Origin: a virus
Taxonomy: Duplodnaviria > Caudoviricetes
Length of the DNA stretch: 63,735 nucleotides
Direction: 5' to 3' (one strand)
Virus record (IMG/VR): IMGVR_UViG_3300045110_000325
Span: 1-63,735 of that record
Below the pieces are notes generated by a model. It was not told the origin of the DNA and made no database searches. It saw nothing but the letters and a program-made list of their open reading frames with translations. The position numbers were made by a program, and so were the translations under genes. This document shows, in pieces, positions 25,582-42,400 of this stretch (position 1 is the first letter of the stretch; every line of letters begins with the position of its first letter).

Positions 25582-25752
25582 ATGGGATTGTTCAGCGACC
25601 GGCGGGAGTACAAGGCCGCGCAAGAGGCGCAGGCGAAGCTGCAGCGGAGCCAGAAGCGGCGCAAGATCCGCGAGGAGACGCCGTCGTACCTGAAGGCGAA
25701 CAAGAGGACGAACGCCGCCGTCAACAAGCTGCCGTGGTGGGCACGGATCTAG
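25582..25752 (+). CDS. small basic protein (56 aa, not in ORF track)
   Basis: MGLFSDRREYKAAQ...ETPSYLKAN...LPWWARI; AAGGGA RBS. Confidence 0.65.
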   Translation: MGLFSDRREYKAAQEAQAKLQRSQKRRKIREETPSYLKANKRTNAAVNKLPWWARI

Positions 25753-25766
25753 GGAGGACAGAAGTC

Positions 25767-25919
25767 ATGGGCATCTTCGACGGGGACCCGAGGTACCAGG
25801 AGCTGAAGCGCATCCGCGAGAAGGAGGGCTACAAGGGTTGGTTAGACCAGGACAACAAGAAGGTGTCCGACAAGGACGTGAAGTCGGGCGCGTGGAAGGG
25901 CAAAGGCAAGAAGAAGTGA
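25767..25919 (+). CDS. small basic protein
   Basis: GGAGGA RBS; MGIFDGDPRY...GWLDQD. Confidence 0.65.
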   Translation: MGIFDGDPRYQELKRIREKEGYKGWLDQDNKKVSDKDVKSGAWKGKGKKK

Positions 25920-26170
25920 TCATCGCCGCCGCCGCGTCGTCGGGTGTGTCGCCTTGGCATTGGCTGTGGATAGCCGCCGCCATGGCCGCCCTGTACCTCG
26001 TCGGGTGCTGGGTGTACCCGTACGCGCCGTGCCGTGTGTGCATGGGCTCGGGGCAGCGCCGCTCCGGCGGGGTGCTCGGCGAGGGCGGGTCGTGGCGTCG
26101 GTGCTGGCGCTGCGGCGGACGCGGGGAGCGGATCAGGCCCGGCGCGAGACTCCTCGGGAGGGGCAAGTGA
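25916..26170 (+). CDS. TM + DnaJ-type CxxCxGxG zinc finger protein
   Basis: PYAPCRVCMGSG ... CWRCGGRGER.R. Confidence 0.7.
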   Translation: MIIAAAASSGVSPWHWLWIAAAMAALYLVGCWVYPYAPCRVCMGSGQRRSGGVLGEGGSWRRCWRCGGRGERIRPGARLLGRGK

Positions 26171-26436
26171 TCGGCAGAATCGTGCACACGCCGCCAGGCG
26201 GGCACTCGTGCATGCCTGGATGGGAGACCATCCGGACAACCCCCGGATCGCCGGCGCCGTACTCCGCCCACTCCGTCAACACCGGCTGCTTCGCCCCCGA
26301 GGGCAGCGTGTGGGAATGCGAGTGCGCCCGGACGTTCGTCGCGTTCTACGACCGCCGGCATGGCTGCCTGGCCGCGTTCTGGCGGCCGGAGCGGCGCCGC
26401 GAGCGCAAGCGCCGGCTCAAGGCGGCTGCCTCGTGA
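26167..26436 (+). CDS. hypothetical protein
   Basis: GS.WECEC; GTGA overlaps. Confidence 0.5.
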   Translation: MIGRIVHTPPGGHSCMPGWETIRTTPGSPAPYSAHSVNTGCFAPEGSVWECECARTFVAFYDRRHGCLAAFWRPERRRERKRRLKAAAS

Positions 26437-27113
26437 GTGGGCGAGCCTGGGCGTACACCGGCGTCGTCCTCGGCGCGGCGGTGTCGGTCGCGGCGAACGT
26501 CGCCCACTCCTACGTCCCCCCCGAGGACGCGCCGCCTGCCTGGTCTCCGCACGCCGGGGCGGTCGTCGGCGCGGTGTTCTGGCCCGTGGCGCTGCTCGTG
26601 TCGCTGGAGATCCTCGCCCGGGTGGAGTGGCCGTCCGGGTGGCGGTGGACAGCTGTCCGCTACCTCGGACTGATCCCGGTCGGCGTGGTGGCAGCCGTGG
26701 TCAGCTACCGGCACATGTCCGGACTGCTGGAGTGGTACGGCGAGGAGAGCATCACGTGCGACCTCGGGCCGTTGGCGGTGGACGGCCTGATGGTGATGTC
26801 CGCCGGGGCGCTGCTGGCCACGGCTCGGACAGCCCGGGCAGTCGAGGCGGCGGCCGAGGACAGCCCGACCGAGCCGCTGGCGACGGAGCCCGCCGAGACC
26901 GTGAAGCCGCAGGTCGTGCTTGACCTCGTGGCGACCCTGGACCGCCTCGGCGTGCCACCTGGCACCGGCCGGGAGAAGTCCCGACAGGAGCTCGCGAAGG
27001 TCGGCCGGCGGGCGTCGACGGGCGACCTGTCCGAGGCTGTCCGGCTGCGGAAGACAGGTGACCGTGCCAAGGTCAACGGCGTGGACCGAGAACTGGAGAG
27101 GGCAGGGACATGA
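26433..27113 (+). CDS. DUF2637/SpdA-like multi-TM protein
   Basis: S..ANV.HS, WP..L, SY.H..L, P.AVDG motifs. Confidence 0.75.
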   Translation: MSGRAWAYTGVVLGAAVSVAANVAHSYVPPEDAPPAWSPHAGAVVGAVFWPVALLVSLEILARVEWPSGWRWTAVRYLGLIPVGVVAAVVSYRHMSGLLEWYGEESITCDLGPLAVDGLMVMSAGALLATARTARAVEAAAEDSPTEPLATEPAETVKPQVVLDLVATLDRLGVPPGTGREKSRQELAKVGRRASTGDLSEAVRLRKTGDRAKVNGVDRELERAGT

Positions 27114-27244
27114 CCGACCGACACGCTGGGTACATCGTCATGCTCGACCACGACCACCGCGACGAATCCGCATGTGCACTACCCGTGCGACACGGTTCGC
27201 CTCGTGGCCTCGGCCTGGTTTGACCACGACCGCTACGACTCAGC

Positions 27245-27718
27245 GTGGAGCGTGTGACCGTGGACATCGTGGAGTTAATCCGGCGCAACCTGGCGGCTGA
27301 CCGGGAGGCGGCTGAGGCGGCGACGCCGGGGCCGTGGCGGCACAACCCCGACAAGCATTGGCGGAAGCCAGGCACTTCGTGGTTCGAGGAGGCAGTCTTT
27401 GCCGGACCAGCCGGGGATGATGCGACCTGCGTCGCGGGCACGGGAGAAACCGAGGACCCGCAGAGCCACGCCGACGCCGCCCACATCGCCCGCCAGGACC
27501 CGGCCGCGACGCTGCGCCGCGTCGAGGCCCTGGAGCGGATCGTGGAACTGCACGCGGTTGAGCACAAGTGCCCAACATTGTTGGACGACGGCGTCGCGGG
27601 GGACCTGTTCACCTTTCAGGTGGGCGGTCGTTTCCCGTGCCAGACCTTGCGCTTGATCGCCTCGACCTGGCCCAACGCCCCCGGCTACGACCCGGCGTGG
27701 ACGGTGCCGCCGCTGTGA
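27245..27718 (+). CDS. DUF6221-like protein (start approximate)
   Basis: AATPGPW, A.HIARQDPA..L..V.A, TLR.IA..W...PGYDPAW. Confidence 0.7.
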   Translation: MERVTVDIVELIRRNLAADREAAEAATPGPWRHNPDKHWRKPGTSWFEEAVFAGPAGDDATCVAGTGETEDPQSHADAAHIARQDPAATLRRVEALERIVELHAVEHKCPTLLDDGVAGDLFTFQVGGRFPCQTLRLIASTWPNAPGYDPAWTVPPL

Positions 27719-27751
27719 CCCCCTCGCGTCGTTGTGTAGTGCGCTTGACAA

Positions 27752-27961
27752 TCAATCGGTGCGTGGTGCGCTTGTCTCGCTCGCACGAACGATCTGCCGA
27801 ATCCGTTCACGGCTGTAACCAGTCGCTCTAACGATGTCGACTTGGCGGACACCATCGCGGGTAGCTTCAACGATGACATGGGCGAGACGCTCACGAGCCT
27901 CGTCTCCTTTGCTGACCATGCGAGCGAGGTCGGCCATGTCGCGCAGCAAGTCTCTAGTCAT
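27752..27961 (-). CDS. small HTH protein, antisense to its neighbours
   Basis: GVRQVDIVRATGYSRERIRQI. Confidence 0.7.
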   Translation of the reverse strand: MTRDLLRDMADLARMVSKGDEARERLAHVIVEATRDGVRQVDIVRATGYSRERIRQIVRASETSAPRTD

Positions 27962-27984
27962 GCCAAGAGTGTAGGCCGAGCCCC

Positions 27985-28029
27985 TTGACATTGCCAGGGT
28001 GCCATGCCAAGCTAATTGGCATGGCACCC
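27985..28029. promoter_or_regulatory. TTGACA promoter overlapped by a 14-bp perfect inverted repeat
   Basis: GGGTGCCATGCCAA-gctaa-TTGGCATGGCACCC at 27997-28029. Confidence 0.7.
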
Positions 28030-28542
28030 GAACCGTCCACACTTACGGGAACGATCCCCGTTCAAGATGGCTGTAAGCCAACCAGTGTCTACCGTCTTTA
28101 CAATGATAGCGGGACATTGTTATACGTAGGCATTGCGACCAATCCATCTCACCGATTCAGGCAACACGCCAAAGACAAACGTTGGTGGTCGGATGTCACC
28201 AGTGCGCGGATCGAAATGGCCGGTAGCGTGGATGATGCGCTCAGGATTGAACGAGAGGCAATCATGGAGGAAGCTCCTTTGCATAACGTCATGGGGAGAC
28301 TGCCACCAAGCGTGAATGCGCTAAGGAATGGGGCTGAAATCAGACGTGCGGCGCGGCAGGAGTTGGCTGATGCCACAGAGGAACGGAAGCGGAGAGCTCC
28401 GGTAGTTGAGCAACAGTGGCGGCAGTCCATCTGCCAGGCCGTGGCGGGGGGTGTCCCCGTGGTGGAGGTCGCCGCGTTGGCGGGGATCTCCCGTGAGCGC
28501 GTCTACCAGATCCGGCGTCAACGCACGGAGGAGACATCGTGA
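28021..28542 (+). CDS. GIY-YIG nuclease domain fused to a C-terminal HTH
   Basis: VYRLY...LLYVG....R..QH...K.WW...E..AI..E.P.HN; VAALAGISRERVYQI; lower GC. Confidence 0.8.
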   Translation: MAPEPSTLTGTIPVQDGCKPTSVYRLYNDSGTLLYVGIATNPSHRFRQHAKDKRWWSDVTSARIEMAGSVDDALRIEREAIMEEAPLHNVMGRLPPSVNALRNGAEIRRAARQELADATEERKRRAPVVEQQWRQSICQAVAGGVPVVEVAALAGISRERVYQIRRQRTEETS

Positions 28543-28561
28543 CGGACAGGAAGGACCGGGA

Positions 28562-28729
28562 ATGGGACTGTTAGACAAGGCCAGGAAAGCTAGCGCGATC
28601 CAGGACATCGTCTTAAGTGGGTCAACGAAAGCTCCTGACGGGACATGGGTCAGAACGCGCAAGGAATACAAGGCAGCCGAGGCGCGCGCGAAGAAGTCGA
28701 AAAGCGGCAAGCGGGCGGCGAAGCGGTGA
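28562..28729 (+). CDS. small basic protein
   Basis: MGLLDKARK..RKEYKAAE. Confidence 0.5.
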   Translation: MGLLDKARKASAIQDIVLSGSTKAPDGTWVRTRKEYKAAEARAKKSKSGKRAAKR

Positions 28730-29457
28730 TGGACCGAGCAGAGCTTGAGTCATCTATTCGGGGGCTTCGCCGCGTCGCCGCTGATTTCTGTGCCAGCGGA
28801 CAACTCAATAACGCGGTGGAAGTGGAGCGGATCATACGGGATCGTCAGGCGGAATTGGCCGCTCTTGACCCCGGCACTTCGCCGGCAGTCAGCGCCGAGG
28901 CGGTGGAGGCGATCTGCGAGGCGCTGCGTGAGCGGTACGGCGTCGACCCGAGCAACCCGTACCGGCCGGAGCGAGCGGCCGACGAGACGTGCACGACGAC
29001 GTTCGTCGACAGCGACGGCGGGCTGTCGATTCGGGCGCTGACGTTCGGCGAGGTCGCAGAGGTCGCCGCCGGCCCCCACCTGCACGCCGGGTGCGTCCCG
29101 GCCGAGGCGCAGGCCGAGAGCTATCCTCACGAGCCGTCCATAGGCCAGCTTGCCTTAGGCGGCTTCGGCGTGTTTTGCGTCGAGTGCTCGCGCCAGGCAG
29201 GCGATTACGTCTATCCGTGCGCGGTGAAAACAGAGTGGCCCTATCCGTCCAAAGTGGTGCCGGCCGACGGTGCCGACGACCACGCCTGCGTTCCCCTCGC
29301 CGAGCTGGCGGAGCTGCGGGTGCTGTTTGGCAAGTGGGAGGCGGAGTGGCACATGCCGACTGTCATGGCCAGGGCATGCGGCGAGCGCATCCGGCTCATT
29401 CTCGACACGCTCGCGTCTAGTCCGGCCGGCTTGTCGCTGAACGGCGAGGCCCCGTGA
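28729..29457 (+). CDS. hypothetical protein
   Basis: Long ORF coupled at both ends. Confidence 0.5.
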   Translation: MDRAELESSIRGLRRVAADFCASGQLNNAVEVERIIRDRQAELAALDPGTSPAVSAEAVEAICEALRERYGVDPSNPYRPERAADETCTTTFVDSDGGLSIRALTFGEVAEVAAGPHLHAGCVPAEAQAESYPHEPSIGQLALGGFGVFCVECSRQAGDYVYPCAVKTEWPYPSKVVPADGADDHACVPLAELAELRVLFGKWEAEWHMPTVMARACGERIRLILDTLASSPAGLSLNGEAP

Positions 29458-29783
29458 CCGGCACCGCGCCCAGCGAGGTGGAGATGGTCCTGCGCGACTT
29501 CCCCTGCCGTTGGTGCGGCGCATCGCCGGGATCAAGGTGCAAGGTCCGCGGGACTGACAGGCGTGTGTCTCGCTCGCACGGCGACCGCCACGCGCAGGCC
29601 GTCGCGGTCGGGCGACTGCCGCTTGGCGACACGCTCGCGACCGATCGCTACGGCGTCTCGACCGGTCGCCGCTGCCCGAACCCGAGGTGCGCCTACCCGG
29701 ACATGGAGCGCGTCGGAGTCGACGACGACGGCCAGGGCGGCTACCTGTGCTGCCCCGCATGCGGAACCGAGCTGGAGGAATGA
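29454..29783 (+). CDS. double zinc-finger protein
   Basis: CRWC.A.PG..C..H..R; CPNPRC..CPAC. Confidence 0.6.
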   Translation: MTGTAPSEVEMVLRDFPCRWCGASPGSRCKVRGTDRRVSRSHGDRHAQAVAVGRLPLGDTLATDRYGVSTGRRCPNPRCAYPDMERVGVDDDGQGGYLCCPACGTELEE

Positions 29784-30169
29784 CGGGCGACGAGCGGTGG
29801 TTGGGCGTCTACGGCTCCCCCGACGGCAGGTGGCTGCTCATCACCGGTCCAGTCGGGTTGATCGGCCCAGCGGAGGTCGCCGCTCAGGTTCCCAGACAAC
29901 CGCTAGCCGGACCGCTCGTCTGGCTCGGCTCCCCAAGTGACTTGATCACCTTGATCTACGCCCACCTGGCCGAGAAGCTTCCCAGGGGATACCGCGGGCG
30001 ACGCGGACCCGCTCAAAGGACGCTCGCCGACTACCTCAGCGTGAAGCAGCAGGACATCTCGCATTACGTGGGCGGTGGCAACCCTCGGTTCACCGACGAT
30101 CAGTGGCGACGACTCGTGGTCGCGCACTTTGACCCGGACGTCCTACTCCCCGCTGGCAGACCGTCATGA
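29780..30169 (+). CDS. HTH-containing protein
   Basis: QRTLADYLSVKQQDISHY. Confidence 0.55.
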   Translation: MTGDERWLGVYGSPDGRWLLITGPVGLIGPAEVAAQVPRQPLAGPLVWLGSPSDLITLIYAHLAEKLPRGYRGRRGPAQRTLADYLSVKQQDISHYVGGGNPRFTDDQWRRLVVAHFDPDVLLPAGRPS

Positions 30170-30299
30170 CCCGTCCGACGCTTGAGCAGCAGGCCGCGAA
30201 CCAGGCGTACGTCGACGCGATCCGCCGCGTGGTCGCCGAGTGCGCCGACGCGATAGCCGCGGCGCGGCAAACAACCGACCAAGAGGAGGAGTGATCGAC

Positions 30300-30590
30300 A
30301 TGGGCTACGCCTTCTACACCGTCCGACGCAATGGCGAGGAGATCGAGGCCGGATACGGCGTCGAGACGACATGCGAGGAGCCCGGCTGCGACGAGGCGAT
30401 CGACCGCGGCCTCGGCTGCCTGTGCGGCCAGACGCCAGGCGGTGACGAGCACGGGTGCGGCGGCTACTTCTGCGGCCAGCACCTGTTCTACGGTGACACT
30501 GGCCAGGGACAGCAATGCCGGCGATGCGTTCGTGCGACCCAGGCTGATCAGATCTCCGCCGCCGACCCGCAGGTCGGAGGTCGCACATGA
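30300..30590 (+). CDS. Cys-rich conserved phage protein
   Basis: GYGV...C..PGC...IDRGL..LCG..GCG.YFC..HL. Confidence 0.7.
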   Translation: MGYAFYTVRRNGEEIEAGYGVETTCEEPGCDEAIDRGLGCLCGQTPGGDEHGCGGYFCGQHLFYGDTGQGQQCRRCVRATQADQISAADPQVGGRT

Positions 30591-30847
30591 GCACGCTGAT
30601 CGCGCGCAGCTTCATCCGTCCCAGTGTCAGCCTAACGCTGGAGGGGCCGGTCGACATCCGCGTGCACAAGGAGATCGGCACGGCCCGCGGTGTTTATCAG
30701 ATGGTCATCGACTCGCAGCCGGAGTTCGGGGGCGTGTGCTCGGTCGGCTTGTTCCTCGACGCCGAGGCTGCCCGCCTGTTGCGTGACGCCTGCGACGAGG
30801 TGCTGGCACTCGCCGCAGCGGCCGGGACACCGGAGTCGACTCGATGA
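30587..30847 (+). CDS. hypothetical protein
   Basis: GGAGG RBS, ATGA overlap. Confidence 0.5.
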   Translation: MSTLIARSFIRPSVSLTLEGPVDIRVHKEIGTARGVYQMVIDSQPEFGGVCSVGLFLDAEAARLLRDACDEVLALAAAAGTPESTR

Positions 30848-30878
30848 CCGCCCGAGAACAGCCGCCTATCGACTCGCG

Positions 30879-31283
30879 ATGCCTGACCTGACCACGGTGC
30901 TCATGCTCGCGGTGCTGCTGCACTTCGTGGGCGACTACCTGACCCAGTCGCACTGGATGGCCACCGAGAAGACCAAGCGGTGGCTGCCAGCCGCCATCCA
31001 CGCGGGCGTCTACGGCCTGCCGTTCCTGCTGGTGACCCGATCACCAGCCGCCTTGGCCGTCATCGTCGGCACGCACGCGGTGATCGACCGGTACCGGCTG
31101 GCCCGGCACGTCGTGTGGGTGAAGAACCTGATGGCCCCGGCCGGTCACCGCCATTCGTGGTCGGAGTGCTCGACGACGGGTTACCCGGCTGCCACCCCAG
31201 CGTGGCTGGCGGTGTGGCTCCTGATCATCGCGGACAACACGATTCATGTGGCGATCAACTCAGCGGCGGTGGTGCTGCTATGA
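30879..31283 (+). CDS. DUF3307-family membrane protein
   Basis: H.VGDY..Q..WMA..K, H..ID, DN..H. Confidence 0.8.
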   Translation: MPDLTTVLMLAVLLHFVGDYLTQSHWMATEKTKRWLPAAIHAGVYGLPFLLVTRSPAALAVIVGTHAVIDRYRLARHVVWVKNLMAPAGHRHSWSECSTTGYPAATPAWLAVWLLIIADNTIHVAINSAAVVLL

Positions 31284-31380
31284 CCCCGCGAAAATAACGC
31301 CCAAGCTTCCTTGAACGCGACCGGCCGAGGTTCAAGCAATCGCCGACTTGCTTGAACCACCAGCGGGCGGAGACAGCGAA

Positions 31381-31408
31381 GAACGCCCCCGCCGAAGCGG
31401 GGGCGTTC
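31381..31408. terminator. intrinsic terminator hairpin between convergent units
   Basis: GAACGCCCCCGC-cgaa-GCGGGGGCGTTC (UUCG loop on minus strand). Confidence 0.75.
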
Positions 31409-31533
31409 CGGGGTGAGCAGCGAGCCCAATATATATTACCGCGGCGCGAACACGATCACTGCGGCCGAGAGCAGCAGCGCCGCCAGCCACATCCACTCAG
31501 TCGCCGTCCACCGGTGGTGTGGGGGGCCGGGCA

Positions 31534-31872
31534 TCAGGTCACGGCTTCCCCCTCGGGTGTCGTGCCGTCCCGACGGCTGGGCTGCTCGGGGACACCGGGA
31601 TCAGGGTAGTCCGCGCGGACGGCGAGCCGTTCAAGCTGCGCCTCGGTCAGGCCGTTGGCGGGGGGCCGGCGTTCCCGTGTGATGTAGCCGGCGGCCCACA
31701 TCAGCGCCCCGGCGACGGCGAACGCGACCCCCTCCGGCACCGGCCAGCCCGCGAGATCGGCGACGGTGACGACGCCGAACGCGACCAGGCCGACGGTCCC
31801 GCTTGCTGCCATCTTGCGGGTTGGGAGCCGGGTGGGTTGTTCGACGGTGGTCGCCCGCTTGGTCGCGTTCAT
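31534..31872 (-). CDS. holin-like two-TM protein
   Basis: RK.AA..two TM segments..AGY; GGAGG RBS. Confidence 0.6.
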   Translation of the reverse strand: MNATKRATTVEQPTRLPTRKMAASGTVGLVAFGVVTVADLAGWPVPEGVAFAVAGALMWAAGYITRERRPPANGLTEAQLERLAVRADYPDPGVPEQPSRRDGTTPEGEAVT

Positions 31873-31909
31873 GACGCCTCCAGGGTCTCCTGAACTTTAC
31901 CGCACGGTG

Positions 31910-31939
31910 TTGACAACTCACAGCGCCACGCTGTAAGGT
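31910..31939 (+). promoter_or_regulatory. housekeeping-sigma promoter with an operator palindrome in its spacer
   Basis: TTGACA-18 bp-TAAGGT; ACAGCG-cca-CGCTGT at 31920-31934; ATG 7 nt after the -10 (leaderless). Confidence 0.75.
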
Positions 31940-31946
31940 AGTGCAC

Positions 31947-32279
31947 ATGACGACGACGCAAACAGCGCAGGCAGCCAGGGTCACCTACCGGAAGACCCGC
32001 GACGGCGAGTGGGTCGCCTTCGGCCCCATCTCGGCCATCAAGCCGATGACGGTCGTCACCGTGACCAAGCGGGACGGCTCCACCAAGACGGAGGAGATCG
32101 TCGAGGTCGGCAAGACCTTCGTCGTCGGCGGCGAGCGGATGCGCTACGGCTACCTGTACAAGCCAGCCACCTCGCGCAACGGATACAGCGCCTCGTACTC
32201 CTGTGCAGACTGCCAGGACATCGAGGACGCGGGCGACGGGCGGGGCTGCTCCCGCCACCGTGGCAACCCCCGCAACTGA
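31947..32279 (+). CDS. small protein, beta-rich N-terminus with C-terminal C/H zinc motif
   Basis: TY.K..DG.W..G..V.VTKRDGS; CADC..C..H. Confidence 0.7.
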   Translation: MTTTQTAQAARVTYRKTRDGEWVAFGPISAIKPMTVVTVTKRDGSTKTEEIVEVGKTFVVGGERMRYGYLYKPATSRNGYSASYSCADCQDIEDAGDGRGCSRHRGNPRN

Positions 32280-32298
32280 CCAGATCTAGGAGCCTGCA

Positions 32299-32721
32299 GT
32301 GATCATCAGGAATTGCACGAGTAAGACCGTCAAAATCCAGAACCCCGTATCCGGGAGGACTGTCACCTTTCCGCCGGGATGGGTTGTGGGGAAAGTCCAA
32401 ATGGGCGACGGACATGCCCTGCACACGGAGAACCAGGACGGTGTGCGATTTGACATCGTTCAGCTTGCGCCAGAGATCTATGTCGACCTGCCGTTCAAGA
32501 GCCCGGACACCCTCCTGATCGTCGACCGGGAGGTCGCTCGGGCGACCAATCGCGATGATTTGGTAACCCCGATCCGGCCGATAAGAGCGACCCCCGGATC
32601 GGATGAGGTCATCGCATACAGCGCCCTCGGGCGATTCTCGCCAGCGTGGCCGCCAGCGCCGCTGGTACCAACTCACGGGTACGACGTATCCGAGATCGGC
32701 CTGTGGGGAGACGAGGTGTGA
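32299..32721 (+). CDS. divergent NLTPH-family paralogue (NCTSK)
   Basis: Aligns by eye to 33013-33519: RN.T, LP, LLIV.R.VA, R.DL..P. Confidence 0.65.
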   Translation: MIIRNCTSKTVKIQNPVSGRTVTFPPGWVVGKVQMGDGHALHTENQDGVRFDIVQLAPEIYVDLPFKSPDTLLIVDREVARATNRDDLVTPIRPIRATPGSDEVIAYSALGRFSPAWPPAPLVPTHGYDVSEIGLWGDEV

Positions 32722-32778
32722 CCGTCCGAATGGATATCCCCGTACTCCCGCGATGCAACGACGGATGGAGGGTGACCA

Positions 32779-32982
32779 ATGAACCGGGACCACCTCAAGG
32801 CGGGTGACGAAGTCGTGATCAACGCCGAGTCATCGTCGTCAGGAGAGGAGCAGGCCGGCACGATCCGGGAGGTCGTCAGCCGAGACGCCATCAACGGGAC
32901 GGTCACCTACTTGGTCGCCGCGCCCGATGGTGACCATGAGTTCGCCGACTGGGAGATCCACCGCGGCAGTCCCCGCAACTGA
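32779..32982 (+). CDS. small SH3/KOW-like protein
   Basis: LKAGDEV...G.I.EV...Y.V; GGAGG RBS. Confidence 0.55.
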   Translation: MNRDHLKAGDEVVINAESSSSGEEQAGTIREVVSRDAINGTVTYLVAAPDGDHEFADWEIHRGSPRN

Positions 32983-33012
32983 CCGTCCCCCATCAACCGA
33001 GAAGAGACACTC

Positions 33013-33519
33013 ATGACCACGGTTCGCAATCTCACGCCTCACCCGGTCGTGCTCGTCGACGGCGAGGCCACTCACACCATTCCCGTTGACGGGCCGCCCG
33101 CCCGGCTCGTGCTTCACCCGGACGAGCCGATCGACCAGGTGACCGTCGGACCGCTGACGGTTCCTGTCGTCCGAACCGCGGCCAGTTCGGAGACGACGGG
33201 ACTGCCGCCGCAAGAGGGGGGCGTGCTTCTCATCGTCGCCCGCGCGGTGGCTGAGGAGTTCCCGGAGCGCACCGATCTGCTGTTCCCCCACCGAACTGTC
33301 CGCGGAGAAGGCGGTCGGGTGGTCGGGTGCGCCGCGTTCGGGATCGCTTCCCCGCTGGTGTCGCCTGCGGAGTCAGGCGATTACACCAGCGAAGACGACA
33401 CGGCTGCGGCAGCCCGTCTCCGAACAGCGGAAGCCAACCTTGAGCGCGCCAAGTTCGCGGCCGAGATGGCCGCGCAGAATCACCTGGCCATCCGGCTGGC
33501 GCGACTGGGGAACCTTTGA
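33013..33519 (+). CDS. NLTPH-family protein, candidate Crn4-like ring nuclease
   Basis: VRNLTPHPV ... GLPP..G.LLIVAR.VA...RTDLLFP...VR...GRVVGC. Confidence 0.6.
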   Translation: MTTVRNLTPHPVVLVDGEATHTIPVDGPPARLVLHPDEPIDQVTVGPLTVPVVRTAASSETTGLPPQEGGVLLIVARAVAEEFPERTDLLFPHRTVRGEGGRVVGCAAFGIASPLVSPAESGDYTSEDDTAAAARLRTAEANLERAKFAAEMAAQNHLAIRLARLGNL

Positions 33520-33884
33520 TGCCTGAGACCGGGAGCGACCTGCCCCTGGTCGAGCGCTGGCCCGAGGACACCACGTGCGCGTTCGGCGACGAGCCCGCCG
33601 TCGCCGAGGTGTCGTTCTGCTTCGCCAACGCCGACCCGCCGGACCGGCTCGTGCCGCTGTGCGCCGAGCATCTTGACTGCGACCAACTGGTGTTCACGCC
33701 GTCCGCTGTGGCGGCGCTGCGGCCGGACCTGGGCATGCGCGTCTCCCGCGACTCCTGGGACCGCATCCGCGCGCTCGCCGCCTCCTGGGACGCCATCGAC
33801 CGGACCGTCTTCGTCGAAGCCTGGGGGATGTGCAGCCGGGACCTGACGCGCCTGCTGGGCGAACTGGAGGACCACGATGCCTGA
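33516..33884 (+). CDS. hypothetical protein
   Basis: C ... LCAEH; coupled to neighbours. Confidence 0.5.
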   Translation: MMPETGSDLPLVERWPEDTTCAFGDEPAVAEVSFCFANADPPDRLVPLCAEHLDCDQLVFTPSAVAALRPDLGMRVSRDSWDRIRALAASWDAIDRTVFVEAWGMCSRDLTRLLGELEDHDA

Positions 33885-34341
33885 GACGCCTCTCACCGTG
33901 CGGGACGCCGCAGCGTGGGCTGGCGTCACCCCATCCACCTGGCGCTCCTACGTCGCACGCGGGCAAGCCCCCGCCGCGGACGGACACCTAGGCGCGACTC
34001 CCTACTGGCACGAGTCGACCGTCCGGGCATGGCTGGACAACCGCCCAGGCCAAGGCCGCCGCACCTGGGGGCTTTGGACCGTCGAGACCGACGCCACCTA
34101 CGACCAGGCGCAATCAGCCACGGGCATCCCGGCCAACCGGTGGTCAACGGCGGGCCGGCGCGGACTGGAGCTGACCACCGGCGTGTCCGAGGCGGTCGAG
34201 GCGGCGCTCGCTCTCCGGTCCGCAGGCCGGGTCGCGTGGCTCACCCCCGGTCCCGGCAAGGTGCCGCCCGCAGACTTCGCGCTCGTGGCCGGCTACGACC
34301 GGCTGACTTGGGACGCCCGCCTCAAGGCCAGCTACACCTGA
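33877..34341 (+). CDS. AlpA/MerR-like HTH regulator
   Basis: LTVRDAAAWAGV.PSTWRSYV.RG.AP..D...P.W...TV..W...RPGQG. Confidence 0.8.
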   Translation: MPETPLTVRDAAAWAGVTPSTWRSYVARGQAPAADGHLGATPYWHESTVRAWLDNRPGQGRRTWGLWTVETDATYDQAQSATGIPANRWSTAGRRGLELTTGVSEAVEAALALRSAGRVAWLTPGPGKVPPADFALVAGYDRLTWDARLKASYT

Positions 34342-34345
34342 GCGC

Positions 34346-34864
34346 TCAGCTTCCCAACAGCCGGGTCATGATCCCGACGATCTCCTCGCCGTAAGTCGGC
34401 GACGGCGCCCACAACCCACCCAACTGCTCAACGGTCGGCGCGGAGCCGAACCGCGGCCCGCCCGGCCAGACGTAGACCGCGCGGGGGTCGGGGGAGTCGT
34501 CCGGCGAGTCGTAGCCGGCGGGGACGCGGCCGGCGTAGAGGGACAGGTGGTCGGCGTGGGCGCGCGCGCCGGTCGCCATGTCGGGGAACAACGCGTGGTC
34601 GGCTGTCGTGTCGCCGGTCGGGTTGCGCACCTTGAGGCCGCACGGGTTGTTCATCGACGGGGTGACCGCGCCGCCGAAGCGCCCCCAGCCGGTTTCCTTC
34701 GCGCATTGCGCGACCAGGACCACCGGGTCGACGCCGACGGCCAGGCCGGCAGCGGCGAGGTGCGGCAGCGCGCTGAAGAACCACGGCGAGGCGGTCGCTG
34801 GTATGTCCTCGTAGTGGATGACGTGGGCCGGCCCCGCAAGGAGGATCGAAACCGGCCGAGTCAG
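34346..34864 (-). CDS. glucosaminidase (GH73-like) domain, reached by -1 frameshift from the amidase
   Basis: G.DP.V..AQ..KETGWG.FGG...NNPCGLK, F.D...G..AH, L.G.WAPS..YG; no canonical start before the conserved core. Confidence 0.75.
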   Translation of the reverse strand: MTRPVSILLAGPAHVIHYEDIPATASPWFFSALPHLAAAGLAVGVDPVVLVAQCAKETGWGRFGGAVTPSMNNPCGLKVRNPTGDTTADHALFPDMATGARAHADHLSLYAGRVPAGYDSPDDSPDPRAVYVWPGGPRFGSAPTVEQLGGLWAPSPTYGEEIVGIMTRLLGS

Positions 34865-34870
34865 TTTCCC
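34806..34870 (-). other. -1 ribosomal frameshift signal (G_GGA_AAC, 6-nt spacer, pseudoknot)
   Basis: Heptamer 34864-34870; S1 34857-34847/34836-34826; S2 TCCTC/GAGGA. Confidence 0.75.
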
Positions 34871-35721
34871 GGGCTCGCCGGAAGCGCGGCCTTGATCTCA
34901 GTGACGGTGGCAAGGATCAGCGTGAGCGCGTCTTCCATCGCGGCGACGCGCTCGGCCAACACGGCCTGCGACTCGCCGAACTTGACGACCATGCCGCTCA
35001 ACGCGTCGGCCTTCCGGGACGCGGCGTGGGAGTTGCTCGCGGCCCACTCGGCGAGGTCGCCCATTCGGACCGCAGTGTGCCCCAACTCGGTCCTGGCCCC
35101 GGTGCCCAGCTCCTCCTCGCGGTTCCACACGTCGTTCGCGTCAGGCATGTCGGCGACCTCCAGGATCACGATCGGGGGGGCTTCGGCGGCGACCAGCGGC
35201 AGCGCCGCGCGGAGCACGGGGCCGGGGCATTCGGTGTCGCCGAAGATGGAGTGGGGGACCACGCGGGTCGCGCCCGGCGTCCGGCTGAGCGCCTTGGCCC
35301 GACACCAGCGCATCCCCTCCACCAGCGCCGGCGTGACCTGGCCGTCGTCGTTGCCGAAGACGACGAGGACGGCGTACCACTCGTCGTTCTCGCTGCCGGC
35401 GAGGTTCGGGTTGTCCTGCCCGGCGGAGCGCCGGTCGAAGGTGCGGCAGGGGTAGACGTGCGCCTGGCCGGCCACGTCGGCGACGGCCCACTGGTAGGCG
35501 ATGTCGCAGTACCCGCGGCCGCCTTCGGACCGGGGGTTCATGTGGTCGTCCTGCCAGCCCCGCAGCCTCGAGCAGACCTGCGCCTCGGTGAGGCCGAGGA
35601 GCGTCCCGGCGCTGCCGGGGTGGTGGTAGACGACGCCCCTGATCCCGGACGTGGCCATGGCGGCGCATCCCGTGCCGGCGCGGCTGGTCCAGTCGGAGCG
35701 GGTGTGAACGACGACGGTCAT
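34861..35721 (-). CDS. endolysin, N-acetylmuramoyl-L-alanine amidase (PGRP/Amidase_2) with helical C-terminal domain
   Basis: R.DW, VYHH, Q..HM..RGY.DIAY, PH....TECPG. Confidence 0.9.
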   Translation of the reverse strand: MTVVVHTRSDWTSRAGTGCAAMATSGIRGVVYHHPGSAGTLLGLTEAQVCSRLRGWQDDHMNPRSEGGRGYCDIAYQWAVADVAGQAHVYPCRTFDRRSAGQDNPNLAGSENDEWYAVLVVFGNDDGQVTPALVEGMRWCRAKALSRTPGATRVVPHSIFGDTECPGPVLRAALPLVAAEAPPIVILEVADMPDANDVWNREEELGTGARTELGHTAVRMGDLAEWAASNSHAASRKADALSGMVVKFGESQAVLAERVAAMEDALTLILATVTEIKAALPASPGN

Positions 35722-35745
35722 CGATGCCTCAACTCCTCTCGGCGG

Positions 35746-36051
35746 TCACATCGCCTGCCGTTGGATGCGGTCGAGTCCGAGCTCGGCCAGGGCGCGGACC
35801 TTCCGGCCGAACGTCCGCCGGAACGCCCACGGCGGCTTTGGGTCGGCCTTGAGGAGCCGGTCGAGGTAGGAGTGGACCGCGCCGTGGGCGTTGGAGCACA
35901 ACGGCACCCGGTTCGCCGGGATGTCAGGCTCGCCATGCCCCAAAGGCCAACAATGATGGACCTCGATCGGCACCCACTCGCGGTGCCGGTGGACGGCGCA
36001 CGCCTTCGGGGCTTTCGGGACGGTCACAGCCACAGGACCGCCGCCGCTCAC
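35746..36051 (-). CDS. HNH endonuclease
   Basis: HH.WPL..G...N.V.LC.NAH..VH. Confidence 0.75.
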   Translation of the reverse strand: MSGGGPVAVTVPKAPKACAVHRHREWVPIEVHHCWPLGHGEPDIPANRVPLCSNAHGAVHSYLDRLLKADPKPPWAFRRTFGRKVRALAELGLDRIQRQAM

Positions 36052-36386
36052 TTCGGCCGAAGCGCGAAGTACAGGCCGACGAGCACGCCGATCGCGCCGA
36101 TGACAGCGATGACCCGCGACATCGGCGACCACGACTGCTCCACCTTGTCCCGCCGCGCCTCCTCCGCGTCCTTCAACGCGGCGGCGGTGGTCACAACGGT
36201 CGCGTCCCGGGCGACAGCCTGATCGCCGAGACGCTGCACGGCCAACTTCAACCCGTGCAGCTCCTCCGCGATCTTCTCCAGGCTGCCATTGATGGCCTCA
36301 AAATGCTTGTCATGGCCTGCGAGCCGGGCTCCGATCTCCCCGGCCACAGCGCCCCGGTCATAGGCCTCCTGCGGCGTCTCGCTCAC
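36048..36386 (-). CDS. coiled-coil protein with C-terminal TM (lysis accessory)
   Basis: HDKHF..INGS; terminal hydrophobic helix. Confidence 0.65.
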   Translation of the reverse strand: MSETPQEAYDRGAVAGEIGARLAGHDKHFEAINGSLEKIAEELHGLKLAVQRLGDQAVARDATVVTTAAALKDAEEARRDKVEQSWSPMSRVIAVIGAIGVLVGLYFALRPK

Positions 36387-36387
36387 G

Positions 36388-36717
36388 TCAGCCGCCTCCG
36401 CAGGTGTCGCGGATCTCCGCGACGACCCGGTCGTTGTCACCGGTGAGCGAGCGGACCGCGTCGGCCATGCGACGCTGCCCGTCCCGGTAGCAGCCGCCGG
36501 CGACATGCCACCCCGTCGCCACGACCCTGACACCGGGGGTGGTGCAGTCGTACAGGCGGAACGCGACCGCGCCGCCGACGACCGTGCCGCAGAGAGTCAG
36601 GACCACCAGGCCGATGACCCACGCCTGCCGGCGTCTCAACCCTTGGACCGCTCCGGCGAACTCCCGTGTCGCGGCGCCGAGGCCGCTGACGGCTGTAGCC
36701 AGGTCGCGCTCAGGCAT
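36388..36717 (-). CDS. single-TM protein with Cys residues (lysis accessory)
   Basis: TM followed by DCTTPG..CY. Confidence 0.6.
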   Translation of the reverse strand: MPERDLATAVSGLGAATREFAGAVQGLRRRQAWVIGLVVLTLCGTVVGGAVAFRLYDCTTPGVRVVATGWHVAGGCYRDGQRRMADAVRSLTGDNDRVVAEIRDTCGGG

Positions 36718-36848
36718 CGGACCGCCTTTCCCGCTCGCTTTCGACTTCCGCCAGCAACGCGTCGGCCTGCTCCTTGAGTTGCTCGGCCAGCAGTTGCAGG
36801 CGGCTCAGCCACGCCTCGCCGCTTTGGCGGCGCGGCGGCTCATCACGC

Positions 36849-37217
36849 TCACGTGTCACGCCGGCTGTCTGCTCCCTCCGCCCTGGCGGCAGCGATCTCG
36901 TCGTCGTGTCGCTGACGGGCCAGGAACTCGCGGTACGAGGCAAGGGTCTCGGCGGTGGAGGCCAGCGCCGGCCCCACCGCCTGGTACACGGCCAGCAACT
37001 CCGCCTTGTGCTTCTCGGCCTGCGTCAGGAGCCGGTCAGACAGCTCCTCGACACGTTTCTGCAGCGCCGCCCGCTCGGCCTCGGTGCGGGTCCACTGCCG
37101 GCCGGCGAACACCAGGCCGAGAGTCGCAATGAAACCGACGACGCCGTAGCCCAAGAAGGGGGACAGATCCCCTGGGGGAGTCTCGGTTTGCAGCCACCAC
37201 AACGCGAGCGCAGGCAC
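36849..37217 (-). CDS. TM + coiled-coil protein (holin-like)
   Basis: YGVVG TM segment followed by heptads. Confidence 0.6.
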   Translation of the reverse strand: MPALALWWLQTETPPGDLSPFLGYGVVGFIATLGLVFAGRQWTRTEAERAALQKRVEELSDRLLTQAEKHKAELLAVYQAVGPALASTAETLASYREFLARQRHDDEIAAARAEGADSRRDT

Positions 37218-38193: not shown

Positions 38194-39462
38194 TTATATC
38201 GCTAACGCGTTCTGGCCGAGGACGCCCAGCGTGGACGAGCCCAAGACGAACCCGCCCCACTTCGTCGCGGACTGCAGCGTGAACGTCACCCGCCACCGGG
38301 CGGGGCTCGCCGACCACTCGTGCTCGACGCCTCGGATGAACACGTCCCGTTGGATCGCCGATCCTGTCGGCGGGCGGCGGATGATCGTGATCCGATCCCC
38401 GATCTCCCGGGACAGCACCGCGGGCCACAGGTTGTCCGGGTCGCGCAGCGGCTCCACGGACAGCGCCGCGAACCGGTACTCCGGATCTTTCGACTGCGAC
38501 ACGACCCAGTTCGCGTAGGACAACGCCACCGAGTCCGTCTGCATGATCAGGTCGGACCGGTCGAACGAGCGGGTCAAGTTCGCGGTCTTGCTCGCCACGT
38601 CCTGCGCGACCTGCTCCGTCCCGCCGACCCGAGTCACCCTGGCGACGTTCACCAACTGCTCGTCGTCGTATTCCGGGACCACGTCCTGGTACTTCAACTC
38701 CCCCGCGTTGTCCCCGAAGGTCGCCTGGGAGGTCGCCGACCGCGCGTCGGTGAAGATCGCCTGCCGGTTGCGGAAGAACGCGCGCCCGCCGGAGTCGATG
38801 TAGAACTCCCCGAGTTCCGTGTCCGCCGTGAGTTGCAGCTCCTGCAGAGCGTTGCCCTCCAGCGTGGTCGCCTGCACCGTCGTGTTCCCGGTGGCCACCA
38901 ACCGGTCCTCGCTCGGCCAGTCCGCTGAGTTGAGAATCCGGTCGACCCGAGTGCCCGAGTCCTCGCCGGCTCCAACCGCGGCCCCGGCGGCGCGGTCCAC
39001 CTGCCCGAGCACCTTGAACCCGTCGGTGGCGGCGACCGTCGTCTCCGCGTACCGGGGCTTGGTGTATTCCGTGGTCCACGAGTCCGCGAAACCCCGCCAA
39101 ATGTTGTAGGTGACGCCGGCCCACGTCGCCCGCAGCCGCACCACCCTCATCGGGCGGACCTGCGTCACCCCGCCCGACACGTACGGCCCGGCCAGGTTCG
39201 ACGCGTCGAACCTGCGGTCGTCGTCGCGGAGCACCAACGACGCGTTGCCCGCGCCGTAGGAGACCACCGGGGACGACACCCGGTCGGAGCCGCGCCGGGT
39301 CGTGAAAGACCGCAGCCACGGGGTCACATCCGTGTACGCCTGGCCGTCACCAAGCGTGCCCGTGCCGAGGAGTCCCCGCGCCGAGTCGCCCAAGTGCAGC
39401 AACGTCCCCGACGACGCGCCGATCCCGAACCCGACCTCAGCGATGATCGTCGGCTGCTGCAT
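38194..39462 (-). CDS. minor tail (hub-like) protein
   Basis: Directly after TMP; DVT..R..RG..G...L...D.RFD; F.LG....G.LG...L C-terminus. Confidence 0.8.
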   Translation of the reverse strand: MQQPTIIAEVGFGIGASSGTLLHLGDSARGLLGTGTLGDGQAYTDVTPWLRSFTTRRGSDRVSSPVVSYGAGNASLVLRDDDRRFDASNLAGPYVSGGVTQVRPMRVVRLRATWAGVTYNIWRGFADSWTTEYTKPRYAETTVAATDGFKVLGQVDRAAGAAVGAGEDSGTRVDRILNSADWPSEDRLVATGNTTVQATTLEGNALQELQLTADTELGEFYIDSGGRAFFRNRQAIFTDARSATSQATFGDNAGELKYQDVVPEYDDEQLVNVARVTRVGGTEQVAQDVASKTANLTRSFDRSDLIMQTDSVALSYANWVVSQSKDPEYRFAALSVEPLRDPDNLWPAVLSREIGDRITIIRRPPTGSAIQRDVFIRGVEHEWSASPARWRVTFTLQSATKWGGFVLGSSTLGVLGQNALAI

Positions 39463-42400
39463 CAGGGGCGGATCTTCAGCCGAATGCCGCCGTTGCTCCT
39501 CGCGTACGCCTGCAGCTCGTCGACGAGCTGCTTGACGTTCTGCACGCCATGCAGAACCAAGTCGCCGTGGACGACGACGCCTCCGCCCCCGCTTCTCGGC
39601 ACCACCGTCTCGCCCGCCTGGAAACCGTAGGTCCGCCCCGAGCGGCCGACGCCCATGATGTCCTCGGTGATCGGCCCCCCGCCGTGGTACCAGTGCGGGG
39701 AGCGCGACGACCACTTGGCGTACGCGTTGACCGGGTTTCCATACGAGCCCTTGATGTAACGGCCGGTGTACACAGCCTGCAGATACGGGTCGAAAGTCTT
39801 GTGGCCGCCCACTGTGGCCCAAGTGCTGTCCAGGAACTGGCCAATTCCGAGCGCGGAGCTTGTCGGGTTTTGGGCGGTGTTGCGGAAACCGGACTCGCCC
39901 ATGAGCAGCCTGTACGCGGCGTTCCACTGACCACCCGACCAGCCGAACATGCTCGCGAAGACCTGCTTCACCAACGCGGCGTTGCCTGACACGTTCGACT
40001 GCGCGCCCAGAGTCGCCGCGCCATCGCCGCCAGCACCCCCAGCGCTGCCGAGTGCCTTCTGCAGGCGGTCCGGCAGGTCGGACAACGCCCGCACGATGCC
40101 CTGGTACGGCTGGCCGGAGACGACCAGCGGGACCGTCGCCGACGGCCGCACCGGGCCGCCGCGAGCATAACCCCCGGCCAGCACGGCCTTGCGCATCCGC
40201 CGCACGGACTGATGGCCGCCAGCGGCCCGCACCTCCTTGGCGGTCCACATGTGCTCACCGGCGCTGGCCCAGATCGGCACGTCATCCGACGTGCCCGTCC
40301 CCGGGCCAGTGATCGCCCCGCCGGCCGCCTTCTTGCGGCCCGCCATGGCAAGCTCCTGCTTCACCAGGGACGTGGCCTGCGCCTTGGAGATGTGCGCCGA
40401 CTTCCACACGTGGTCGATGCGGGCATTGAGATTGTCGAAGCCGTGGATGGCGTCCTTCAACCCAGGCGTCGACACCTTGACCTTCAGGTCAGACGGGACC
40501 TTGAACATCTGCTCAAGCAGCTTGTGCGTCTCCGTCTTCGAGTACCCGGCCTGGATCGCCTGGTTCTCCAGATCCTTCTTCTGCTGCCGGAGGCTCGCGT
40601 TCACCACGTCAACGGACTTGCCGGCCGCCCTGTCGGCTTTCGCCTTCGCGTAGGCGGCGTCGACCGCGGACTGGAAAGCCGCGACGTTCTCCCGGCCCGC
40701 CGCGGTCATGATGTTCAACGAGTGCGACCCGACCTCGCCGGCCCGTTTCTGCGCCGCCGCGACGTTGCGCGCCGCGTCCGCGACCGCCCTAGCCGTGTCC
40801 TGCTGCGCCTTCGCGATGCCGCGCTGCGCCTCGGCGACCGCCCTCGCCGAGTCCTCATGAGCCTTCGTCAACGCCACCCGGGCGTCACGCGCGGCCCCGT
40901 CCGCGGACGTGACCGCTTTCTGCGCGGCGACCACCGCCGGGGTGGCGTTGACGCCCTCGCGCTCCACCTTGTTGCTCTCCCGCACCGCCTGGGCGCGTTC
41001 CCGCTGCGCGTCGGAAAGGCTGTCCTGCGCCAGCGCCAACGCCAAGATGGCCTCGCGGCGGTCCAAATCCGTCGACTTGGCGTCCTTGTTGACCTCCTTC
41101 AGCCGCTGCTGCGCGCGCAGCACCTGCAGAGTCGCCCCCTCCTCTGCGAGCAGAGCGTCGTCGACGGTCTCCTTCAAGTCCCGGAGCTGGCCGGCGGCGT
41201 CCCTGCGGGCCTGCGTCAAAGACCGCTGCGCCTCCCGCTGCCGGTCCTGCGCGCCGGTCAACGCCTCCTCCGCGGACCGCACCGACTCCGCGCCCGCCTT
41301 GTACGCGTCGCCCAGGGCGCGCTGCGCCGATGTGATCTGCTCCGCGCCCGAGGACTGCGCGTCCGCCAACGCCCGCTGCGCGTCGCCCACCTCCCGAGAA
41401 GCGTCAGCCGCCTCCCGGGACCGGTCGCCGAGCTGATGCAACGCCGCGTTCCACGCCGAAGTCGAGGACACCGCGTCCCGACCAGTCGAGGCGATCAGAT
41501 CCAGCCCCGACGCGTAGGCGCCAGCCGCCTGCTGGTTGTCCAGCAACACGCGAAGGCTCTTGTCGACAGCAGGGGTCAAGCCGAGGCCCAGCGCCTCCGC
41601 CGCGGCCTTCGCCTTCTGCGCGGTCTCGTCGAGTTTTCCGCTCAGGTTGCCGGCCGCGTCGGCGTGGGCGTTGGTCGCGCCCGCCGCGACCTTGTCGACC
41701 TCCGCCTTCTCCCGGGTCTTGTCCAACGCCTTGCCCGTCGCCTCAGACTCGCCGTGGATGCCCTCCTTCACCGCGTTCAACGCGTCCAGGCGCTCGCTGC
41801 TGACCTGCCCCGTCAACTGCAAGTGCGCCTGCTCCTGGCGGATCTGCTCGTCGATGATCCCGGTGACGCGCTTGCGCGCGTCGCCCTCGTTCAGGGTGGC
41901 GGCCAGGACATCCTTCGCCGCGATCCCGAACTGCGCCGCACGCTGGATGACCTTGTCCTGCGCGAGCGCCTGCGCCACGTACTCGCGGGTCGTCCCGCCG
42001 ATCGCGCCGCCGTCCTGCTCGATGGCGGCCGTCAGCGAGTCGATGTGGTCCTTGGCACGCTTCGACGCCGCCGCGAACAGGCCGACCCCGGCGGTCGCGC
42101 CCACAAGCGCGACACCCCACGGCCCGCCGAGGAACCCGGCCAGGCCGCCAGCGGCCCCGCGCAACTTGCCGACCGAGCTGGCCGCCGAGCCCATCGCGAA
42201 CTTGCCGCTCGCGGTCTGGGCGGCGACACCGGCCGTGGCGATCCCCGCCGCGGCCGCCTCCGCGTCCGCGCCGACGACCAGCAACGCCTTGCCCGTGCGC
42301 AAGCTGCTGATGCCCAACTGGTCCATCGCCGTGCGGACCGCGCCCACGCCCTTGCCCGCGACAACCAAGCCGACCAAGCCGAGGACAGCAGCCTTCGCGA

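Follow-up and report, generated by a model that had tools for sequence, protein, structure and literature searches.

The stretch of DNA analysed here, IMG/VR virus record IMGVR_UViG_3300045110_000325 (Duplodnaviria; Caudoviricetes), carries a block of six short open reading frames (ORFs) between its lysis genes, at positions 31910-34341; 'the window' refers to the whole record of 63,735 bp. The fourth of these genes, ORF4, encodes a homologue of the Crn4 ring nucleases that has kept the catalytic residues, as judged from sequence comparison and a predicted structure, and is likely to destroy the signal molecules of type III CRISPR immunity. On balance, the block is probably one plus-strand unit in a temperate, Micromonosporaceae-type phage, with a core function in counter-defence against cyclic-oligoadenylate (cOA) signalling. 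The first description of Crn4 dates from late 2025, and that it serves viruses as an anti-CRISPR has so far only been proposed (PMC12830947). Phage-borne Crn4 is itself already in print; the variant features of the present example are a paralogue that lacks the catalytic histidine, a C-terminal helix, a partner with an HTH_17-type helix-turn-helix (HTH) domain, and a place inside the lysis cassette. The elements of the block are as follows (aa, amino acids; GC, G+C content; GC3, G+C content at third codon positions).

31910-31939, plus strand: promoter-like site (TTGACA at 31910-31915, 18-nt spacer, TAAGGT at 31934-31939)
31920-31934: palindrome ACAGCG-CCA-CGCTGT in the spacer, 15 bp (6+3+6), candidate operator
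31947-32279, plus strand: ORF1, 110 aa, GC3 0.92; first gene, probably leaderless
32255-32281 and 32958-32984, plus strand: copies 1 and 2 of a 27-nt direct repeat, identical at 24 of 27 positions
32299-32721, plus strand: ORF2, 140 aa, GC 0.61; diverged Crn4-fold paralogue
32779-32982, plus strand: ORF3, 67 aa, orphan
33013-33519, plus strand: ORF4, 168 aa; Crn4/Unk01 domain at aa 1-111, C-terminal helix at aa 127-166
33519-33884, plus strand: ORF5, 121 aa, orphan, GC3 0.93; start overlaps the ORF4 stop (ATGA)
33877-34341, plus strand: ORF6, 154 aa; N-terminal HTH_17-type domain (33892-34044)

The first-pass annotation had described six short plus-strand ORFs closing with an HTH gene, placed between the endolysin locus and the holin-like gene and opposite to them in strand. 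All six are present, at 31947-34341, and the flanking genes are indeed all on the minus strand. Each of the six shows a coding signature, with GC3 values of 0.73-0.93 that exceed those of positions 1 and 2. Stop and start codons overlap at the ORF4/ORF5 and ORF5/ORF6 junctions, and the other gaps are short. Plausible ribosome-binding sites can be read ahead of ORF2 and ORF3.

ORF4, a homologue of the Crn4 ring nucleases

As a single sequence, ORF4 matches three Crn4 chains in the Protein Data Bank (PDB): Crn4b (1.1e-10), Crn4a (1.2e-7) and the Crn4 H15A variant (4.4e-7). Relatives number 51 among 5.8 billion clusters, all of them unnamed, and 28 of these were used for a family alignment and profile. 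With this profile the same three entries are found at 7e-33, 6.3e-29 and 7.2e-26, respectively, and are the only strong PDB matches. ORF4 also matches the PADLOC family Unk_01 (1.5e-16), and Unk01 is the earlier name of Crn4 (PMC12830947). The AlphaFold2 (AF2) model has a predicted local distance difference test (pLDDT) score of 93.5 and, when searched against the PDB with Foldseek, returns seven matches at E<=1e-3, each of them a Crn4 entry; the best is Crn4b (9r7b; E 1.1e-9, template-modelling (TM) score 0.80). By these matches the model has the Crn4 fold, which is made up of beta-strand pairs, one short helix and an extended hairpin. A search of 50,697 phage records with tblastn gave just two weak matches, both in archaeal viruses.

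Ten positions are invariant in the 28-member alignment (N6, L7, T8, P9, H10, R31, R86, D88, P92 and G105), and they include the family motif NLTPH. R97 is kept in at least 90% of the members. In the register of the PDB alignment, T8, H10 and R97 of ORF4 correspond to T13, H15 and R112 of Crn4a (H17 and R103 of Crn4b), and the substitutions H15A and R112A abolish the activity of Crn4a (PMC12830947). ORF4 thus shares with Crn4b (PDB 9r7b; PMC12830947) its sequence, its predicted fold and the T/H/R active-site residues. It also has the length of Crn4b, without the ~10-residue insert of Crn4a, and adds a confidently modelled C-terminal helix of ~40 residues. Some phage and plasmid orthologues of Crn4 have instead N-terminal extensions of 60-80 aa (PMC12830947).

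The characterized enzymes are homodimers with a composite active site. They differ in range, as Crn4a cleaves cA3, cA4 and cA6 and Crn4b cleaves cA3 and cA4; type III immunity was relieved by Crn4a in a plasmid challenge (PMC12830947). Among 28,137 phage genomes 11 were reported to have homologues, as were 10 of 59,895 plasmids, and an anti-CRISPR role was proposed for them (PMC12830947). A viral ring nuclease of another kind, AcrIII-1/Crn2, is likewise a small dimeric enzyme with an essential histidine as general acid, whose removal of cOA disarms type III effectors (PMC12830947). However, its fold is unrelated to that of Crn4, and it acts specifically on cA4, while the range of Crn4 enzymes includes cA3.

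The opposite reading, that the block is a defence rather than a counter-defence system, was considered and rejected. PADLOC returns only Unk_01 and C3a69 for ORF4, C3a69 at E 0.001 for ORF2, and an HTH-level match to mad1 for ORF6.

Genomic context of ORF4 relatives

The ten closest loci carry homologues of 52-58% identity and come from Micromonospora, Plantactinospora, Dactylosporangium and an Actinomycetales metagenome-assembled genome. In eight of the ten the frame is shared, with a gene of ~820-860 aa upstream on the opposite strand and genes of ~700-760 aa and ~555 aa downstream. Genes in these and the other related loci were called with a rough script based on GC3 and length, and neighbour counts by family may therefore miss short genes. 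Three of the ten loci (L035, L032 and L027) were scanned for protein families. In L035 (homologue 58% identical) the upstream gene matches 'CARF fused to a diverged HEPN' at 7.2e-95, and the 557-aa downstream gene matches Cas10/Cas10d at 6.7e-89 and 3.1e-54. L032 (52%) has a Cas10 match at 6.6e-33, and the upstream gene of L027 matches no Pfam family. A more distant Streptomyces locus (L036, 37%) has a match to Cas7_IIId at 8.7e-38. Judged from these family matches, the scanned loci belong to type III-D and include a Csm6-2-like effector, the setting from which Crn4 was first discovered (PMC12830947). The nearest cellular relatives of ORF4, beside CARF-HEPN and Cas10d, thus have the context reported for Crn4 group a (PMC12830947). 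The gene order in L035 (3383-10322), with similar frames in L026-L029, L031, L033 and L034, is CARF-HEPN on the minus strand, Crn4, a ~700-aa protein and Cas10d; the ~700-aa protein has no match in Pfam or PADLOC.

Homologues on viral contigs (n=25) are far more distant, at 27-47% identity. The phage gene therefore looks like a relative of the off-switch of its likely host family. ORF4 combines both associations known for Crn4, with mobile elements, being itself a phage gene, and with type III CRISPR loci, through homologues beside Cas10, Cas10d and Cas7_IIId. One reason why the phage is a clean test case is that its Crn4 is intact and most closely related to the host family's own type III-D ring nucleases.

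ORF2, a diverged Crn4-fold protein

Alignment of ORF2 to the Crn4 family with hhalign spans the entire domain (115 columns), with a probability of 95% and an E value of 2e-8. A search of the phage's own genome with the Crn4-family profile finds the ORF2 region (32290-32640) at 7.9e-11. As a single sequence, ORF2 matches Crn4b at an E value of only 0.019. Its AF2 model has a pLDDT of 87 and a TM score of 0.74 to Crn4b, although this model leans toward the Crn4 fold because its input alignment consists mostly of Crn4 members. Where the family reads NLTPH, ORF2 reads NCTSK, with K9 in place of the catalytic histidine (the equivalent of H15). N5, T7, R85, D87, P91 and R96 are kept, of which R96 is the equivalent of the catalytic arginine. 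Because the histidine is replaced by lysine, ORF2 is classed here as a Crn4-fold protein and not as a ring nuclease.

ORF2 is a near-orphan, with three non-self matches among 1.84 billion representatives, no tblastn match in the phage records and no relatives in a scan of IMG/VR. One of the three (P0072, 209 aa) has a ~110-residue N-terminal extension, NLTPT for NLTPH, and no conserved arginine; possibly it is another naturally non-catalytic form of the Crn4 fold.

A nucleotide-binding protein without the histidine could sequester cOA rather than cleave it, in possible analogy to the sponges Acb2, Tad1 and Tad2, although ORF2 has no relation to them in sequence or fold. Csx15 has been discussed as a possible sponge in PMC12409355. 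Residual or altered catalysis is equally possible for ORF2, as it retains the arginine that pairs with the histidine in Crn4. The protein is in any case a ready-made probe for a sponge function, or an altered chemistry, of the Crn4 fold. A bolder version of the counter-defence reading, which we regard as speculative and give little weight, would make ORF4 and ORF2 a two-component countermeasure against cOA, with ORF2 as a sponge or as partner subunit in an asymmetric enzyme suited to cA3. ORF6 would then be an HTH_17-type autoregulator representing a new class of anti-CRISPR-associated (Aca) protein, and ORF1, ORF3 and ORF5 would be unrecognized inhibitors of other defences. A predicted complex of ORF4 (1-118) with ORF2 (1-122) has a median score of 0.24 against a mark of 0.32, which is not evidence either way.

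The 27-nt direct repeat consists of the last eight codons and the stop codon of both ORF1 and ORF3, and so brackets ORF2 and ORF3. Its 24 matches were reached in none of 60 simulated regions. The encoded peptide end, RHRGNPRN, has its origin in the ORF1 family, in which four of nine members have it, the phage's own included. ORF2 and ORF3 were thus apparently inserted later, at the 3' end of ORF1. The GC of ORF2 is 0.61, compared with 0.70 for the genome.

Promoter, candidate operator and ORF6

The pattern TTGACA-N16-19-TANNNT occurs at a single site on the two strands of the genome, where 100 mononucleotide shuffles average 0.13. The promoter had been called near-consensus in the first-pass annotation; the site is present and unique, but the term was generous, since the -10 TAAGGT shares only three of six positions with TATAAT and fits just the actinobacterial form TANNNT. 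A generic sigma-70 scan of 21000-37000 called no promoter, the block's own site included. The exact palindrome, which shares its final T with the start of the -10 element, is also present in a single copy; allowing up to two mismatches there are ten matches, with 6.55 expected. The first-pass annotation had extended this palindrome to 31917-31937; it is present in the spacer, but covers only 31920-31934. The ATG at 31947 lies 7 nt past the -10 element, a leaderless geometry, and the alignment of homologues prefers it to the GTG at 31941 as the start of ORF1; the transcript would therefore be leaderless.

ORF1 belongs to a small phage family, with eight homologues found and 30 loci in metagenomes (L043-L072). 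In 11 of these 30 loci the ORF1 homologue is preceded, at a distance of 160 nt or less, by a strict promoter of the form TTGACN-N16-19-TANNNT, and in five of the 11 the start codon is no more than 6 nt from the -10 element, which is again a leaderless geometry. Three of the loci (L048, L051 and L060) have spacer palindromes with arms of 6-8 bp and unrelated sequences. Counting the block's own, 4 of 12 strict promoters are palindromic against a background of 7% (binomial p ~0.008), and therefore the palindrome at 31920-31934 is probably a real operator. The ORF1-family gene and its promoter may form a portable early-promoter module. This recurrent pairing of promoter and first gene in soil phages could help to locate other early or counter-defence operons.

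The DNA-binding protein encoded at the end of the block matches phrog_597 'DNA binding protein' (3.5e-16) and phrog_66 'excisionase and transcriptional regulator' (2.4e-5). ORF6 is the sole HTH_17 gene in the genome, and this together with the single exact copy of the palindrome fits a regulator with a local, not a genome-wide, role. The overlapping codons of ORF4, ORF5 and ORF6 would tie the dosage of ORF6 to that of the ring nuclease. The layout of the block matches that of anti-CRISPR (acr) operons with aca genes (Aca1-Aca13), where small counter-defence genes follow a strong promoter that holds an inverted repeat and the 3'-terminal gene encodes a DNA-binding protein. Here the DNA-binding gene is co-oriented with, coupled to and downstream of the ring nuclease gene, and the inverted repeat lies in the operon promoter, against the chance background of 7%. 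The differences are that ORF6 is of the HTH_17 type, is 154 aa long and has an orphan C-terminal part, and that it does not recur beside varied acr genes elsewhere. In a 2026 report, homologues of the ring nuclease gene csx20 sit behind an Aca motif of the ribbon-helix-helix (RHH) type (PMC13551039). Such ring-nuclease homologues in Aca-regulated operons are a precedent for the layout of ORF4 with ORF6, though the words HTH_17, MerR and excisionase are absent from the main text of that report (PMC13551039). The candidate regulator and candidate operator add to the value of the phage as a test case.

A series of observations weighs against a counter-defence block under its own Aca-like repressor, beginning with the lean of the ORF2 model toward its input. 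Arms of at least 6 bp are present in 7.0% of random 30-nt windows of the genome, so that a lone palindrome says little. The Pfam HTH_17 match of ORF6 (residues 6-56, E 8.4e-5) scores 23.2 bits and falls short of the 27-bit cut-off, and HTH_17 is also the fold of excisionases, none of which has been identified in this temperate phage. Full-length homologues of ORF6 are absent from the 5.8 billion clusters, where its relatives cover 31-38% of the protein (the HTH part). ORF6 is missing from within 6 kb on either side of all 37 other Crn4 loci and from all 30 ORF1-family loci. The 98 proteins that neighbour the 25 viral Crn4 genes show no enrichment of HTH families, and the only DNA-binding families among them are RHH_1, NikA-like, DUF6290 and a transposase HTH, one each. 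The promoter, palindrome and ORF1 recur without the ORF6 HTH, and the operator may therefore belong to another protein. Lastly, Pfam, NCBIfam, PHROG functions and PADLOC explain none of ORF1, ORF3 and ORF5, with only sub-threshold Pfam matches for ORF3. Thus the Acr/Aca-like architecture proposed in the first-pass annotation fits as a layout but fails as an association of ORF6 with Crn4 or ORF1 loci elsewhere, and the proposed anti-defence island is borne out by the Crn4 homologue ORF4, is plausible for ORF2, and finds no match to any anti-defence family in ORF1, ORF3 or ORF5.

Other searches with the remaining genes were of the same kind. The C-terminal ~95 aa of ORF6 are orphan, and its tblastn matches in 49 of the phage records cover the HTH part only, except for one with 80% coverage and 34% identity. 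ORF1, ORF3 and ORF5 have no tblastn match in these records, none of the three is found in the 6 kb on either side of the other 37 Crn4 loci, and scans of IMG/VR with ORF1, ORF5 and ORF6 gave no relatives. An NCBIfam scan of seven proteins returned nothing meaningful. In the ESM Atlas, ORF1 leads to unnamed viral clusters (score 0.91) and ORF5 to matches scoring 0.80 or less, which are leads only.

An alternative that we consider unlikely but serious takes the block for an early or accessory operon of mosaic origin, with Crn4 as its only counter-defence gene. The palindrome would then be read by ORF1 or by the immunity repressor (~19.6 kb), and ORF6 would be an excisionase or recombination directionality factor, or a general early regulator, and not an Aca. 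The recurrence of the promoter module in 11 of 30 ORF1-homologue loci, five of them leaderless and three with differing palindromes, is in line with this, as is the absence of any homologue of ORF2-ORF6 from those 30 loci, where the 80 neighbouring proteins show no HTH enrichment and include one HTH_17 protein. The match of ORF6 to phrog_66 suits a phage with an integrase and an attP core, and mosaic assembly is apparent in the 27-nt repeat around ORF2-ORF3 and the low GC of ORF2. However, no second copy of the palindrome was found at the divergent HTH_3 switch region (a shared 7-mer noticed by eye was given no weight), and ORF1 has no DNA-binding domain recognizable in family scans. ORF6 lies 12 kb from the integrase, and it is translationally coupled to ORF5 and ORF4.

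Proposed mode of action

In the counter-defence reading, a sigma-70/HrdB-type promoter at 31910-31939 would fire a leaderless mRNA from about the ATG at 31947. ORF4 would cleave the cOA made by the Cas10 of type III CRISPR systems, namely cA3 and cA4 as in Crn4b and possibly cA6. This would keep CARF effectors inactive, the Csm6-2-like CARF-HEPN of the Micromonospora loci being an example. cA3-based cyclic oligonucleotide-based antiphage signalling systems could be blunted as well. A type II Panoptes system would be triggered by the removal of cA3 (PMC13577387). ORF2, with lysine for the general-acid histidine, would most likely bind cOA and either cleave it differently or not at all. For an Aca-like shut-off of the promoter at the palindrome, the best candidate in the block is ORF6.

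Flanking lysis genes and transcription

The block is flanked by the following minus-strand features.

31280-31400, minus strand: three strong hairpins 3' of the holin-like gene (fold z -4.3; none of 200 shuffles as stable)
31318-31297, minus strand: terminator-like site
31534-31872, minus strand: divergent holin-like gene (holin phrog_9284, 7.8e-8), with two hydrophobic stretches seen by eye
34346-34723, minus strand: endolysin gene, Glucosaminidase family (endolysin phrog_8124, 1.4e-16)
34861-35721, minus strand: endolysin gene, 286 aa (endolysin phrog_1493, 5.9e-8)

The hairpins at 31280-31400 are the probable end of the minus-strand late transcript. As they occur only beyond the holin-like gene, late minus-strand transcripts would cross the block antisense to reach that gene. 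On the plus strand there is no hairpin signal after ORF6 (fold z 0.17), and block transcripts would therefore continue into the endolysin genes. ORF6 and the endolysin gene converge, their stop codons lying 4 nt apart and both within the 10-bp palindrome TGAGCGCTCA (34339-34348). A later shut-off of the promoter could remove the conflict between minus- and plus-strand transcription.

This geometry would also suit a block that is mainly regulatory, in which convergent or antisense transcription times lysis and the proteins are secondary. The paired stop codons within TGAGCGCTCA, the contrast between the fold z of 0.17 after ORF6 and that of -4.3 beyond the holin-like gene, and the lack of any plus-strand terminator-like site in 21000-37000 all point in this direction. 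A T-tract is often missing from actinobacterial terminators, however, so the scan may miss them. The coding signature of all six ORFs and the retention by ORF4 of the catalytic residues of a known enzyme make such a role for the block highly improbable.

Upstream, the glucosaminidase frame stays open as far as 34897, so that it overlaps the last part of the 286-aa endolysin ORF, whose stop is at 34861; the region as a whole is 34346-34912. Its first ATG, GTG or TTG, at 34723, would drop the first ~16 of the 123 positions of the Pfam Glucosaminidase profile. A frameshift may join the two endolysin ORFs into one endolysin, or an indel in the assembly may have caused the split.

Phage genome, lifestyle and likely host

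The record is classed as linear, has a GC of 69.8% and an estimated CheckV completeness of 77%. The only sequencing run listed with this DNA is a soil metagenome, which is its possible source, and the listing has no RNA run. The majority of the genes are on the minus strand. The region 31000-36200 has no megablast match among the phage records. Landmarks outside the block are as follows.

5808-7178, minus strand: helicase
19290-19448 (minus strand) and 19631-19792 (plus strand): divergent HTH_3 gene pair (46.7 and 39.3 bits), with an AT-richer gap of ~100 bp
20431-21846, minus strand: tyrosine-type integrase (phrog_1, 2.3e-50)
21999-22045: probable attP core, 47 bp, adjoining the integrase and 94% identical to the 3' part of tRNA-Arg(CCT)
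23363-25492, plus strand: FtsK/SpoIIIE-like protein, 709 aa (phrog_1358, 5.9e-25), in the accessory region
39462-43538, minus strand: tape measure protein
61723-63285, minus strand: large terminase

The divergent HTH_3 pair looks like an immunity switch of the cI/Cro type. The stretch at 21999-22045 is probably the attP core, in which case the phage would integrate into a tRNA-Arg(CCT) gene. Since the integrase, the HTH_3 pair and the attP-like stretch occur together, the phage is taken to be temperate. The match to tRNA-Arg(CCT) was found in three of three genomes searched, all of Micromonospora, and the host therefore probably lies in or near the Micromonosporaceae, in agreement with the origin of the closest ORF4 relatives.

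A temperate phage could also express the block as a prophage, with the ring nuclease damping the type III signalling of the host so that the lysogen tolerates prophage transcripts, and the HTH protein keeping expression at a low steady level. Cellular Crn4 has this same damping role (PMC12830947). The block would be well placed for it, being opposite in strand to the structural and lysis genes and within the central region, which separates the lysis genes from the integrase and whose plus-strand accessory genes include an FtsK/SpoIIIE-like 'moron' and a membrane-protein 'moron'. The form of the promoter is silent on timing, an early burst in lytic growth would be equally in keeping with a strong, operator-bearing promoter, and we consider expression of this kind a decidedly improbable account of the block.

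A third HTH_3 match lies at 2707-2859 on the minus strand. Three contigs of one Micromonospora genome (G003) have stretches that share 65-72% identity with the DNA of the FtsK/SpoIIIE-like gene (23363-25492).

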